Shown one piece after another: positions 25,602 to 40,093 of a stretch of 40,093 nt of DNA. Numbering within the stretch: the first letter of the stretch is position 1; each line of letters opens with the position of its first letter. Below the pieces are notes generated by a model that saw nothing but the letters and a program-made list of their open reading frames with translations, was not told the DNA's origin and made no database searches. Location of the stretch: IMG/VR virus record IMGVR_UViG_3300017971_000135, one strand, 5' to 3'. The translations under genes were made by a program, and so were the position numbers. The stretch comes from a virus.

Positions 25602-25913
25602 TTACTTGACTACCTTAACGTTGTACCCCAGCCTCTCGCTGATTTCGGCAACGGTCAACTCCTGGGCCTTACTGGTGGCTGCGGCGTGCTCGGCTTCGGT
25701 GAGGAGCTTGCCGTTGAGGTACCACTCCTTGCCACCGTCGGCGTACTCAATTGCAGGTCCGTCCTCCCGGTGGCGCTTGCCGTTGAGCCACCACACCCTG
25801 TTCCCGCTGGCGTCCTCAACTGCTGGTCCGTCCTCCCGGTGGAGTTTCCCGTTAAGCCGCCACGACCTGTCACCGTTTTCGTACACCCTGACATCGTAGG
25901 TTGTGTGGTTCAC
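25602..25913 (-). CDS. MORN-repeat-variant (YwqK-like) repeat protein
   Basis: GTG start at 25913 with GAGGAGGGAG upstream. Three repeats of W.LNGK.HREDGPA.E. Confidence 0.75.
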   Translation of the reverse strand: MNHTTYDVRVYENGDRSWRLNGKLHREDGPAVEDASGNRVWWLNGKRHREDGPAIEYADGGKEWYLNGKLLTEAEHAAATSKAQELTVAEISERLGYNVKVVK

Positions 25914-25937: not shown

Positions 25938-26264
25938 CTATGCCGTGACCTGTGCAATGGCCTGCCAGCATGCCGCATGGTACTGCTTCCATGCTGGCTG
26001 CTCGATGGCATGGTACTGCTTCCATGCTTGCCGCACGATGGCTAGGTACTGCTTCCATGCTCGCTGCCTGATGGCTAGGTACTGCTTCAGCTGTGCCGTG
26101 GTTAGCAGATACTGCGCAGCCCACTCAGCCTCCAGCCCAAGATCGTGTGCCTGAGCACAGGTCTCAGGGGTGATCTCTACGGACTCTCCCCAGCAGATAG
26201 CCACAAGTGCCACCTGATCCCCACAGGCACCCAGTTGCTCCAGCTGCTTAACGGTTACGCGCAT
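25938..26264 (-). CDS. Hypothetical protein with an internal 11-aa AWKQY repeat
   Basis: ATG at 26264 with AAGGAGAG upstream. The N-terminus has VKQLEQLGACGDQ, and the C-terminal half has RAWKQYLAI / QAWKQYHAI / PAWKQYHAA. Confidence 0.65.
   Translation of the reverse strand: MRVTVKQLEQLGACGDQVALVAICWGESVEITPETCAQAHDLGLEAEWAAQYLLTTAQLKQYLAIRQRAWKQYLAIVRQAWKQYHAIEQPAWKQYHAACWQAIAQVTA
25975..26093. repeat. 33-bp tandem repeat, about 3.5 copies, inside CDS 25938-26264
   Basis: Units at 25975-26007, 26008-26040, 26041-26073 and a partial fourth share ggtactgcttccatgc. Confidence 0.85.
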
Positions 26265-27434: not shown

Positions 27435-28073
27435 TTATTCCCCACCGGCTTTTGTGCTGCGCGTGTTGGCAGATGTAAAGCCGGATTCCTTATTCAAAAG
27501 TGCGCCCCACTGCTCCGCAAAGGCAAGCGCGACACCCTGGTAAGTACGACTACGCTCTCTTGAGCGATTCGGGCCGGGAGGCAACCTGTGAATACGCCCC
27601 TCGCGACCATCAACAATATTTGTAGGCTGCAACGACGGCAGATTGCGCAACCACAGACAGGTTGCCTTGCTCTCGCCATGCCCAAACTGCCACGGCTGAA
27701 CGATCTGCGTATACCGCTCGCCAATCAATTCCATAGCGTACCTGTGCGGGATGGGATTTTCCACCGCTACGGCACGGGCGTTGGCTCCGAGACAGCACCG
27801 GAAAAACTCGGCAGCACGCTCCATCTCAGCCCAACGCCCAGGCACGGTTCGGAGCCAACGCACACCAGAATTGCACAGGAAGGTACACGGCGGATGCGCT
27901 ACCACCAAATCCCATCCCGCACCTAACAACTCTGAAACGTCCCCCCGAACGTGGCGGTGAGTCCCCCGGTCCGAATCGCTCGGCTGTAGATCGCACGATA
28001 TGGCATCGTGCCCCGCATCCAGAAAGGCATCGCGGACCCTTCCGCTACACTCACACGCTACGAGTACTCGCAT
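27435..28073 (-). CDS. C5-cytosine-MTase-fold protein, paralog A (short form)
   Basis: ATG at 28073. LVACECSGRVRDAF, AHPPCTFLCNSG (PCQ-like motif IV), AVENPIP (ENV-like motif VI) and QPWQFGHGESKATCLWL. The family assignment is tentative. Confidence 0.7.
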   Translation of the reverse strand: MRVLVACECSGRVRDAFLDAGHDAISCDLQPSDSDRGTHRHVRGDVSELLGAGWDLVVAHPPCTFLCNSGVRWLRTVPGRWAEMERAAEFFRCCLGANARAVAVENPIPHRYAMELIGERYTQIVQPWQFGHGESKATCLWLRNLPSLQPTNIVDGREGRIHRLPPGPNRSRERSRTYQGVALAFAEQWGALLNKESGFTSANTRSTKAGGE

Positions 28074-30348: not shown

Positions 30349-30984
30349 TCATGGCGTCACTTTGCCTGTTGTAAGCTGTTCGCCAACTTCCTCCATTTTG
30401 AGTGTGCCCCACTGCTGCGCCATGGCAAGAGCGATGCCGCTGTACGTAACGGCACGAATCTTTGAGCGATTCGGACCGGGGGGCAACCTGTGACACCGAC
30501 CGACCCGACCGGCAACCACATCGGTAGGCCGCAACGGTGGCAGGCCACGCAACCACAGACAGGTTGCCTTGCTCTCGCCATGCCCAAACTGCCACGGCTG
30601 TATAACCTGTGAATACCGCTGCTCAATTATTTCCATAGCGTAACAGTGAGGAATGGGATTCTCGACGCAAACGTGCGCCGCGTTGGCTTCAAGGCACTTG
30701 CGAAAGAACATTGCCGCCTGTATCATTTTCCACCATCGGCCAGGTTGAGTATGAAGCCAACGCACACCTGAGTTACATAGATAGGTACACTCTGGATGAG
30801 CAATAACCAAATCCCATTCATCACCTATAATATCCAACACATTCCCTTGATAGTGGCGAGACTTACCACGGTCTGAATCGCTCGGGTGAAGATCGCACGA
30901 TATGGCATCAAAGCCACGATCCAAGAATGCGTCGCGCACTCTCCCGCTCCGCTCACATGCTACTAAGATTCGTTTTTGGCGCAC
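30349..30984 (-). CDS. C5-cytosine-MTase-fold protein, paralog B (short form)
   Basis: Proposed GTG start at 30984, giving (M)RQKRILVACERSG, which aligns with the MRVLVACECSG start of paralog A. AHPECT, VENPIP and QPWQFGHGESKATCLWL. Confidence 0.65.
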   Translation of the reverse strand: MRQKRILVACERSGRVRDAFLDRGFDAISCDLHPSDSDRGKSRHYQGNVLDIIGDEWDLVIAHPECTYLCNSGVRWLHTQPGRWWKMIQAAMFFRKCLEANAAHVCVENPIPHCYAMEIIEQRYSQVIQPWQFGHGESKATCLWLRGLPPLRPTDVVAGRVGRCHRLPPGPNRSKIRAVTYSGIALAMAQQWGTLKMEEVGEQLTTGKVTP

Positions 30985-31132: not shown

Positions 31133-31624
31133 TCAGAACTCTGGAGGCACCAGCTCGCCGTCGGGCATGACCAGCGACATGGGCTCGTAATTCGCTGCCA
31201 GTGCTGCGTCCACGCCGTCGGCGAACAACTCTGATGGGTGTCCGTACCTGTCAACGATCCAGATTCGCAGGTGCCAGTACAGGGACTCGTCGAATGCGAA
31301 CCAGAGCCGTCCGTACCGGGCCATCTTGTTCGGTGTGAGAAAACTGGTGTCTTCGACCTCGACTAGTTCGAGTACCAGCATGTCTTGACCCCAGCCTTCC
31401 TTCGTGCCCTCAGCCTTGAACCGCCAAGCGTCGGGTAGCACTCGGATAGTAGTGAGAGAATGGGCGATCTCCTCGTCGCACCAGTCGTCAGTTGCATCGG
31501 CCGACAGGCACTTCTTGGCCTCGATGGCTGCACGGACAGCCTGCTGCATCCCGCCCTTGCACCATCCACGCTTCAGCAGTTCATCGACGTACCGTTTGCT
31601 GGTGCCCCACGACTTCATGTTCAT
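31133..31624 (-). CDS. Hypothetical protein
   Basis: 163 aa, ATG with GAGGAGAG upstream. No motif recognised. Confidence 0.7.
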   Translation of the reverse strand: MNMKSWGTSKRYVDELLKRGWCKGGMQQAVRAAIEAKKCLSADATDDWCDEEIAHSLTTIRVLPDAWRFKAEGTKEGWGQDMLVLELVEVEDTSFLTPNKMARYGRLWFAFDESLYWHLRIWIVDRYGHPSELFADGVDAALAANYEPMSLVMPDGELVPPEF

Positions 31625-31642
31625 GCTCTCCTCACACAGAAA

Positions 31643-31674
31643 GAGCCCCCGGGCCGTGAAAGGCCAAGGGGCTC
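31643..31674 (-). terminator. Intrinsic-terminator-like hairpin downstream of int/attP
   Basis: The minus strand reads GAGCCCC-tt-GGCC-tttcac-GGCC-cg-GGGGCTC, followed directly by TTTCTGTG. Confidence 0.45.
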
Positions 31675-31688
31675 AGGTGTTCCACCGG

Positions 31689-31709
31689 ATTCGCCACAAA
31701 TTCGCCACA
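31689..31709 (+). repeat. Two direct copies of ATTCGCCACA with 11-bp periodicity (candidate arm-type recombinase/RDF site)
   Basis: Copies at 31689-31698 and 31700-31709, about 80 bp from the tRNA-like core. Confidence 0.4.
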
Positions 31710-31735
31710 CGTCTGGCGGTTCGCGGTCGTTTTCG

Positions 31736-31765
31736 TTGACTCTCGTGCGCAGGAATCGCTATATT
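31736..31765 (+). promoter_or_regulatory. Near-consensus sigma70 promoter directly upstream of the tRNA-like segment
   Basis: TTGACT (31736-31741), an 18-nt spacer, then TATATT (31760-31765). The tRNA-like 5' end lies 20 nt further on. Confidence 0.45.
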
Positions 31766-31784
31766 CTGGCACTGAAAAGCACGA

Positions 31785-31823
31785 GCCAGCATAGCTCAGT
31801 TGGTAGAGCGACGCATTCGTAAT
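31785..31823 (+). other. 5' half of a tRNA-Thr(CGT)-like gene; putative attP core region
   Basis: GCCAGCA-TA-GCTCAGTTGGTAGAGC-G-ACGCA-TTCGTAA-T reads as acceptor strand, canonical D-arm, 5' anticodon stem and a loop with CGT. The downstream sequence cannot form the anticodon stem, the T-arm or the acceptor 3' strand. Confidence 0.6.
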
Positions 31824-31867
31824 TGAAGGCTCCGGTTGGTAAATCTGCCGATTCCTGCACAGAAAGC

Positions 31868-33055
31868 TCATTTTTCGCCTCCTGCCACAGCATCAGTCGC
31901 TACAGATTCGCTCGACTCCCCCCACTGCACCAGCTCCAGCGAAGCCGCGTCCTGGTGGTAGTAGGTCTGCATCATGTTGGTGCGCCAGCCAGCTACCTGC
32001 ATGATCACATTGTCGGGGGTACCTGCGTTAGACAGGTTCGTTACCGCCATGTGCCGCAGGTCGTGGAACCGGAAGCCAGGCCTTCGCTTCCGGTCCTTCC
32101 CCTTCTCCTTCTTCGGTAGCGGCTGTTTCAGTCCCGCCTCGACCATACACCCCAACCAGGCCCGCTTGAAGTCTCCGAGCGGCTGGGCAATGCCATCGAG
32201 ATCCCGGCGATAGAACAGGTAGTCTGTATCCTCCGGAAGTGTGCGGAAGTAGTCTTTCTGTTCAGGAGGGATCGGCTTGTACATCATCCGGCCCGACTTC
32301 GACATTGCGCCTGGTACCATGATCCTGTTCCGGAACAGGTCAAGGTGTTCACGACGCATGCCTACGAGTTCCTTCGTACGCGAGGGAACTCTCACAGCGA
32401 ACCGGGTGATTGCTGACAGGTGGGGAGCCCTCTTGTCGATCACCGTCAGTAGATTCTGCAACTGCTGGTCGGTCAACACATAGTCTCGAGCAGGGACAGA
32501 AGAGATTCCCCAGTGGCGAATCGGAACAGTCTCAATGCGCTCCTTCAGCACGGCGTGTTGCAGCACAGCCCGAAGGATTGCCGCCATCTTGTTGACCGTG
32601 TGCTGGTTCTTCGCCTTTCGCAGCCGGGCACATTCACCATCCCACCATCGACGCAATGGCTTGCCGATCTTCAACGTGCCAACTGAGGTCGACAGGTGCT
32701 CCAGATACCACTTCGCACTATCGGACACGCCCTTTCCTCGGGCGCCGCCGTCGCGCTTGTACTCCTCAATTGCTTCTCCGAGTGTCCAGACTGTCAAAGA
32801 ACAGCCCTGCATCTTCGCGACCCACTCTGCGTACAGCTGCGCGACGCGGGCGGTGTGTGTCTGACTTCCGGGACGACCGGGTACCTGCGTAGTGTGCTGT
32901 CGTGCTGACGAGTAGGTTTTACCAGGCTTCCTGGGGTCTGACACACGAAAGTGACCCCGCATCTTCACCGTTCCATTGGCCTCGACGGTCCATGGCACGG
33001 CTGCCTCCATTTCTGGAGGAACACCCGGACGGAAACTAGGGAATGGGGTGGTCAT
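31868..33055 (-). CDS. int: Tyrosine integrase
   Basis: The C-terminal catalytic region has FRFHDLRHMAV...AGW......YYH (HxLRH box and Tyr). It is adjacent to the tRNA-like site. Confidence 0.9.
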   Translation of the reverse strand: MTTPFPSFRPGVPPEMEAAVPWTVEANGTVKMRGHFRVSDPRKPGKTYSSARQHTTQVPGRPGSQTHTARVAQLYAEWVAKMQGCSLTVWTLGEAIEEYKRDGGARGKGVSDSAKWYLEHLSTSVGTLKIGKPLRRWWDGECARLRKAKNQHTVNKMAAILRAVLQHAVLKERIETVPIRHWGISSVPARDYVLTDQQLQNLLTVIDKRAPHLSAITRFAVRVPSRTKELVGMRREHLDLFRNRIMVPGAMSKSGRMMYKPIPPEQKDYFRTLPEDTDYLFYRRDLDGIAQPLGDFKRAWLGCMVEAGLKQPLPKKEKGKDRKRRPGFRFHDLRHMAVTNLSNAGTPDNVIMQVAGWRTNMMQTYYHQDAASLELVQWGESSESVATDAVAGGEK

Positions 33056-39970: not shown

Positions 39971-40093
39971 CGAAGTAGCACTTCGCGTCTGTCACGAACT
40001 CCTTGCGCTGCATCCGTGCGCGATGTACCCTTCAGTGTGAACTCATGCACGGAGGTGCCCCATGCGGATCGCCGCGACGTTCCTCATCCTCGC
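39971..40093. repeat. Terminal direct repeat, copy 2 (identical to 1-123)
   Basis: Same 123 nt as the window start. It contains a duplicate of the ATG and first codons of the 92-478 gene. Confidence 0.95.

Follow-up and report, generated by a model that had tools for sequence, protein, structure and literature searches.

Classical attachment sites in the anticodon loop of tRNA genes are those of the phages P22 (thrW, a tRNA-Thr(CGU) gene), HP1 and L5, all of which carry the loop together with the 3' half of the gene and keep the host promoter.

Integration on the 5' side of a tRNA gene makes up a smaller class, rare but with published cases (Zhao & Williams 2002, J Bacteriol 184:859, as cited in PMC6563490 and PMC1635311); in Islander, islands with a 3' tDNA fragment number 3,760 and those with a 5' fragment 159, or ~4% (PMC4383910). 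When an element carries the 5' part of a tRNA, the promoter has to come from the element as well. This is the case for the pTN3-like archaeal integrases, which use the 5' half of a tRNA gene and have the rebuilt gene expressed from element DNA, an arrangement seldom seen in bacteria (PMC8371274). The same review notes that the 7-nt anticodon loop has the size of a tyrosine-recombinase overlap, and that the palindromic anticodon stem can act as a pair of core-type sites (PMC8371274).

Here we describe a locus that we assign to this rarer class, found in a stretch of viral DNA of 40,093 nt (IMG/VR record IMGVR_UViG_3300017971_000135; the whole stretch is called the window below). We put at roughly 70% the probability of the following reading: a temperate phage has its attP here, and its tyrosine integrase targets the anticodon loop of a host tRNA-Thr(CGT) gene for recombination, with a polarity that is the reverse of the usual one. 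Read in this way, the locus shares with the P22, HP1 and L5 sites a tyrosine integrase gene beside attP, a 7-nt loop as overlap, an anticodon stem as core-type inverted repeat and a tRNA that would be rebuilt, and with P22 also the target species, tRNA-Thr with the anticodon CGU; unlike all three, this phage carries a predicted promoter and the 5' half. As far as the 5'-side elements are described in the citing papers and in the Islander account, they resemble it in having the 5' part of the tRNA on the element, a target orientation towards the integrase gene that is reversed relative to relatives, and an anticodon-loop sublocation. Set against those same descriptions, the present case differs in being a complete tailed phage from an uncultured lineage, seen in the free circular attP state, and in that both polarities occur within one small integrase clade at the same tRNA-Thr(CGT). 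With the pTN3-like integrases of Thermococcales (Cossu et al. 2017, as summarized in PMC8371274) it would share an attB in the 5' half of a tRNA gene and element-driven expression, whereas in that summary the integrases are archaeal and have attP within their own gene ('suicidal'), and here an intergenic attP lies downstream of an intact integrase gene of bacterial type. Finally, actinobacteriophages with tRNA-dependent lysogeny likewise integrate in a tRNA gene and compensate for the damage, but there the host tRNA is lost and a whole spare gene is supplied by the phage (PMC10865867), while this phage has a half only.

A half-tRNA beside the integrase gene of a circular phage genome

The window begins and ends with an exact 123-bp direct repeat (1-123 = 39971-40093), so the assembly is circular and the genome is 39,970 bp long; a 38,980-bp ENA contig of this phage begins at the same point. 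The phage is present in SRR6963591 and in ENA ERZ27256798. Nearly all genes lie on the minus strand. Right of the att region are genes for recombination, which encode a Cas4-like exonuclease and a Holliday-junction resolvase; to the left, the DNA methyltransferase and radical-SAM genes come before the terminase gene, and the structural genes lie beyond it. Since the genome is circular and phage genes flank the site on both sides, the site is an attP and not a prophage end. The complete 40-kb genome that carries it is that of a temperate phage. Megablast with the att and integrase region as query found no close relatives among GenBank phages, and TerL homologues gave no host signal, being ~60% identical to Paenibacillus and Moorella prophages alike. 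Several repeats were seen in the genome to the left of the attP: a 205-nt direct repeat with 81% identity (27560-27764 and 30462-30666) lies inside two paralogous DNA-methyltransferase genes (phrog_757), which bracket an MT-A70 methylase gene and the radical-SAM gene just left of the attP, and two tandem arrays lie upstream of the packaging genes, one of two 69-nt units with 81% identity (25703-25840) and one of three overlapping units with a 33-nt period and 89% identity (25979-26088).

The integrase gene (31868-33055, minus strand, 395 aa) is transcribed toward the att site. Its product matches PF00589 (E=8.8e-17, residues 193-370) and phrog_1 (E=3.7e-28), and the residues R190, K253, H331, R334, W357 and Y365, which make up the R-K-H-R-[H/W]-Y set of a tyrosine-recombinase catalytic domain, are invariant in an alignment of nine sequences (the window and eight relatives). 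The protein is rare: there are ~15 clear relatives in 5.8 billion protein clusters, the best identity among 50,697 GenBank phage records is about 26% or less by tblastn, and a scan of genome contigs with the window integrase returned no relatives.

Convergent with this gene, on the plus strand at 31785-31823, lies the sequence GCCAGCA TA GCTC AGTTGGTA GAGC G ACGCA TTCGTAA T, which comprises, in order, the acceptor strand, U8-A9, the D arm, nt 26, the 5' strand of the anticodon stem, a loop with the anticodon CGT and one extra base. Its 3' end is about 44-45 nt from the integrase stop codon. The bases that follow (TTGAAGGCTCC... / TGAAGGCTCC...) cannot pair as the 3' strand of the anticodon stem, and there is no T arm after them. 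The first-pass annotation had read these 39 nt as the 5' half of a tRNA-Thr(CGT) gene that the downstream sequence is unable to finish, and had expected ARAGORN to call no full tRNA here; both readings hold, with 0 complete tRNA genes called by ARAGORN in the entire window and, from the Rfam tRNA covariance model on 31785-31831, a partial match of 16.2 bits against a gathering score of 29 in place of a complete fold. No complete, foldable tRNA gene is thus encoded at this place. A matching 3' half (a T arm followed by TGCTGGC) was looked for throughout the window, as in a split or permuted tRNA, and none was found; a split or permuted tRNA with its other half elsewhere in the phage was therefore rejected. 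What remains is a block that matches tRNA nt 1-38 and ends at the anticodon loop next to an integrase gene, the composition of an attP for a tRNA gene.

A trivial origin of such a block would be the mis-joining of host tRNA reads into a phage contig, and one observation fits this: the Logan contig L002, which derives from the same phage, breaks off within the half-tRNA (window position 31791), as it might if the assembly graph branched where the phage and a cellular tRNA have k-mers in common. An independent ENA contig (L001) spans the entire junction with 99.99% identity, however, the same architecture occurs in four other contigs from other samples, and the contig closes into a circle. An assembly chimera is effectively refuted by these findings.

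The remaining parts of the region are laid out around the half-tRNA. Upstream of it lies TTGACT-N18-TATATT (31736-31765, plus strand), a sigma-70-like site that matches the consensus at 10 of 12 positions and whose -10 element ends 19 nt before tRNA position 1; it is the only promoter-like site in the 900 bp from 31300 to 32200, where shuffled sequences give 0.2. At this suitable distance, it is the predicted promoter of a rebuilt tRNA gene. Further out on the integrase-distal arm, two tandem copies of ATTCGCCACA with 11-bp spacing (31689-31698 and 31700-31709, plus strand) are the sole exact copies in the window. The 9-mer CACAGAAAG also occurs exactly twice in the 40 kb, against 0.17 expected, once at 31635-31643, where it overlaps the tail of a terminator, and once at 31858-31866, just before the integrase stop codon (both plus strand). 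The ATTCGCCACA copies are candidate arm-type integrase sites, and the first-pass annotation had proposed the same for CACAGAAAG. The terminator itself, a hairpin followed by CUUUCUGUG (31643-31674, minus strand; -29.5 kcal/mol, z=-2.6), was also picked by a terminator scan and is likely that of the integrase strand; it forms the outer end of the attP region. The promoter-like site and the paired ATTCGCCACA copies (31689-31709) had been named in the first-pass annotation and were recovered as described there, as was the direct repeat of CACAGAAAG, whose coordinates had been given one base off. On the other side of the half-tRNA, the integrase-proximal arm (31824-31867) is non-tRNA sequence as it stands and includes the conserved block GCCGATTCC...CAGAAAG; TTGAAGGCTCC overlaps the half-tRNA by one base, as it begins at 31823. 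A 79-aa ORF that covers the whole attP region (31632-31871, minus strand) is annotated as a gene in the ENA record and is probably spurious, since it matches no Pfam family and the relative L126 lacks a counterpart.

Relatives with either half of the same tRNA

Two sets of related contigs, L126/L182 (integrase 45% identical to that of the window) and L123/L183 (51% identical), share this anatomy. In L126 and L123, the sequence GCCAGCG TAGCTCAGTTGGTAGAGCAACGCA TTCGTAA lies directly after the integrase gene and convergent with it, in the same place and orientation as in the window, and is followed on its far side by four CATAGCWC-type repeats, a terminator with a 13-bp stem and phage genes that include a DUF5131 gene. 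In all three phages the identity to tRNA ends at the 3' edge of the loop; right after it they diverge from each other, and their arms are alike in layout alone. Upstream of the tRNA start, L126 and L123 have a conserved TATATT at 10 nt; a simple scan found no sigma-70 match in either, so that a good match is seen in the window alone. The L123 integrase ORF is called through the tRNA half, giving 419 aa vs 347 aa.

A natural variant of the L126 phage was also found (L124/L131, IMG/VR 3300035208_003303; 46.8 kb, CheckV 97% complete; the end of the IMG/VR contig is the Illumina adapter AGATCGGAAGA). It is without 1,726 bp (L126:1255-2980), which hold the tRNA half, the promoter, the repeats, the terminator, the DUF5131 gene and three small genes, and across the deletion a break within the anticodon loop (TTAC|GAA) is fused, at a 3-bp microhomology, to the beginning of a MazG-like gene. 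We had considered it as an alternative junction or an integrated form and rejected this, as it is the L126 phage minus those 1,726 bp. The deletion fits an aberrant break made by the integrase at the core, and a phage of this kind should not be able to integrate normally.

The mirror image of this arrangement occurs in L190 (integrase 47% identical), in which the integrase gene is followed by a 38-nt arm, then TTCGTAA + TGCGTAGGTCGGGGGTTCGAGTCCCTTCGCTGGC, three repeats (CATAGCAC, placed after the 3' half), a terminator and a DUF5131 gene. The tRNA part reads TTCGTAA-TGCGT-AGGTC-GGGGGTTCGAGTCCCTT-CGCTGGC, which is the loop and 3' half of a tRNA gene, co-directional with the integrase gene. Because its acceptor 3' strand CGCTGGC complements the GCCAGCG of L126 and L123 exactly, this is the same tRNA, represented by the opposite half in the opposite orientation. 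An integrated relative is seen in L186 (48% identical, in a Chitinivibrionales MAG), where the integrase gene and its arm are followed by TTCGTAA and the 3' half of a host tRNA-Thr(CGT) gene, and then by CsgG-like and GH57 genes; the junction of phage and host lies exactly at the 5' edge of the loop.

The convergent layout of promoter, half-tRNA and integrase gene might also be thought to serve regulation, in a manner similar to retroregulation: in the free phage, the promoter and half-tRNA would send a short RNA, tRNA-like or antisense, into the distal part of the integrase gene at its 3' end, integration would rewire this, and repair of the tRNA would be a by-product. The promoter does face the integrase gene, 102 nt from its stop codon, with no terminator-like site on the plus strand between them, and the convergent arrangement is present in all three phages with a 5' half. 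A lysogen, however, would have the promoter of the host tRNA gene at that position, which leaves nothing to be rewired; in the mirror-image L190, no comparable promoter points at the integrase gene; and the conservation of exactly tRNA nt 1-38 is left without explanation. We regard such a regulatory role as improbable.

A further integrated relative, L189 (45% identical), has a baseplate J gene and a truncated integrase gene followed, after 47 nt, by an intact tRNA-Thr(CGT) gene, convergent with the integrase gene, and a TPR gene. The acceptor of this tRNA is GCCAGCA, identical to that of the window. L180 has an unoccupied tRNA-Thr(CGT) gene of the GCCAGCA type, and the gene upstream of it is an ortholog of the L189 TPR gene (55% aa identity, E=7e-124), so that the two contigs represent the occupied and the empty site in related organisms. 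As L189 has the 3' half on its integrase-proximal arm, the att anatomy of this integrase family is plastic. The proximal arms of L189 and the window align with z=4.0, a score reached by 5 of 3000 shuffles, and have AATC-GCCGATTCC-GC-CAGAAA in common, so that the CAGAAA part of the second CACAGAAAG copy is kept in the L189 arm. In this alignment the TTGAAGGCTCC of the window lies opposite TTGCTGGCTCC of L189, which is the 3' acceptor strand of the tRNA with its discriminator; TTGAAGGCTCC may therefore be a relic of a tRNA 3' acceptor end. The alignment suggests that the window attP descends from one with a whole tRNA or with a proximal 3' half, of which ~27 nt were then lost.

The same alignment bears on the proposal that the half-tRNA is a passive relic. 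In that view, an ancestor with an ordinary 3'-half or whole-tRNA attP would have excised aberrantly and taken the promoter and 5' half of the host gene with it, after which the 3' half of its own decayed. The fragment would then merely be tolerated, and the phage may have lost integration or, if it still inserts, may leave no functional gene behind. The homology of the window arm to the arm of L189, which an intact 3' half separates from the loop, would be expected from such a history, as would the alignment of TTGAAGGCTCC with the tRNA 3' end, as if ~27 nt had been deleted, and L124/L131 does exist without the entire distal arm. Against it, the 5' half is intact, with canonical features of the D arm and anticodon stem, in three lineages at 45-51% integrase identity, all of which keep the loop boundary though their flanks have fully diverged; conservative recombination in the loop would in any case yield a complete gene, as the ARAGORN calls described below indicate, and an origin of this kind is compatible with a present function. 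We therefore consider it unlikely, if somewhat less so than a regulatory role, that the fragment is a relic and nothing else.

Proposed recombination in the anticodon loop

We return to the reading that we prefer, that of a functional attP. Because the phage carries the predicted promoter and the 5' half, and not the 3' half, insertion would take place in the anticodon loop and the gene would be rebuilt from its front. The integrase-distal arm would consist of the candidate arm-type repeats, the promoter and tRNA nt 1-38, and the proximal arm of non-tRNA sequence. The position of the crossover is suggested by the relatives: the attPs with a 5' half match tRNA positions 1-38, the L190 attP and the L186 junction match from position 32 on, and the sole tRNA segment common to attPs of both kinds is the 7-nt anticodon loop. 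The crossover would accordingly be placed within the 7-bp loop TTCGTAA, the probable overlap, at 31816-31822 (plus strand) in the window.

At the junction on the integrase side, host upstream DNA, the host promoter and the host 5' half would be joined through the loop to the proximal arm of the phage, so that the host fragment there would be displaced and dead. At the far junction, the phage repeats, promoter and 5' half would be joined through the loop to the host 3' half, and this would give a full tRNA-Thr(CGT) gene whose expression starts in phage DNA. The expected attL is non-phage upstream DNA followed by GCCAGCA...TTCGTAA + TTGAAGGCTCCGG, and the expected attR is ...ATTCGCCACA...TTGACT...TATATT..., the 5' half and TGCGT...TGCTGGC. 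In silico, ARAGORN calls tRNA-Thr(cgt) when the window half is joined to the 3' half of any of three GCCAGCA-type genes (L180, L189, L179), and calls no tRNA on the native window sequence in the same test. The model put forward in the first-pass annotation, in which integration replaces the host promoter and 5' half with a crossover in or near the anticodon loop, is supported by the loop boundaries of the relatives, by the mirror-image L190, by the L186 junction and by the equivalent repeats and terminator. The contrast drawn there with the usual 3' portion goes too far in one respect: the arrangement, going by the accounts in PMC6563490 and PMC4383910, is rare and already described.

When genome, viral and metagenome contigs were scanned, neither an att junction (attL or attR) nor a lysogen turned up for the window phage or for any relative with a 5' half. 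Among genome contigs, a 32-nt pattern running from the D arm to the loop gave at least 120 matches, and none among the matches listed has the acceptor GCCAGCA. Viral contigs gave nothing with the window half, the L126 half or two 3' halves as queries, and the metagenome scan gave attP forms and unoccupied tRNAs only. tRNA-Thr(CGT) genes of the GCCAGCA type do exist (L179-L181 and L189), and the search for integrated copies of the phage that had been proposed at the outset brought up none in these contigs. None of these genes is identical to the window half over all 38 nt; the nearest among the matches listed is L180, which differs at nt 26. L180 was considered as a possible attR and rejected, since the host TPR gene upstream of it marks an empty site. 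These negative results weigh against the preferred reading, as do the poor promoter match in L126 and L123 and the plastic att anatomy that L189 reveals.

A contig from an uncultured Rickettsiales MAG (L078:3571-3839, CAZFKP010000021.1) has an orphan 5' half of a tRNA-Thr(CGT) gene, with the acceptor GCCGTCT and cut after the loop, 145 bp upstream of an intact tRNA-Thr(CGT) gene with a different acceptor (GCTGCTT/AAGCAGC), which is preceded by two tandem GTGTCAGCA repeats with 11-bp spacing. This arrangement resembles a remnant left by a cassette or by integration on the 5' side.

Polarity of integration within the clade

In the window, the 5' portion of the tRNA is carried and its orientation to the integrase gene is reversed relative to the wider family. 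Four more distant relatives (L191, L192, L188 and L127; 34-41% identical) have the loop and 3' half of other tRNAs right after the integrase gene and co-directional with it. These segments (L191:5100-5180, L192:1370-1440, L188:2500-2565 and L127:11110-11165) have the loops CTCTTAA, TTCCCAA and TTCCTAA, with the apparent anticodons CTT (Lys), CCC (Gly, twice) and CCT (Arg). In an integrase tree, the window, L123, L126 and L190 form one clade with 100/100 support, the order within which is weakly resolved; a co-directional 3' half after the integrase gene is the common state of the wider clade, and the 5'-half state is confined to the small one.

Read along the integrase strand, the window, L126 and L123 have arm-TTACGAA-(reverse complement of the 5' half), and L190, L186, L191, L192, L188 and L127 have arm-loop-3' half. 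Both types at tRNA-Thr(CGT) then take the form arm-TT[NNN]AA-TGCGT, with the centre CGT in one and ACG in the other, and differ in sequence past the stem. Since the types differ in the three central bases of the overlap, it would have to be the asymmetric centre of the overlap that sets the direction of insertion. A tentative reading, to which we give somewhat less than even odds, is that this one small clade uses both polarities at the loop of tRNA-Thr(CGT) through a switch in which the central three bases were inverted and the distal gene half was swapped, with the relic 3' end pointing to an attP with a whole tRNA as the intermediate, and that these phages form a natural series of polarity flips. 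The palindromic anticodon stem would permit both the inversion of the central bases and the swap of halves.

This att site leaves the current understanding of integration unchanged. It adds a clear phage example, with a free attP form and three lineages, to the rare class of 5'-side elements that rebuild a tRNA gene, and prophage finders that use 3' tRNA fragments alone will misplace the ends of such prophages. The most interesting further point is the occurrence of both polarities on one tRNA inside one integrase clade, where paired relatives with the 5' half and the 3' half of the same tRNA, and related integrases, would offer a compact system for the determinants of integration polarity. 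In a lysogen of the window phage, a host gene of an essential type would be transcribed from phage DNA.
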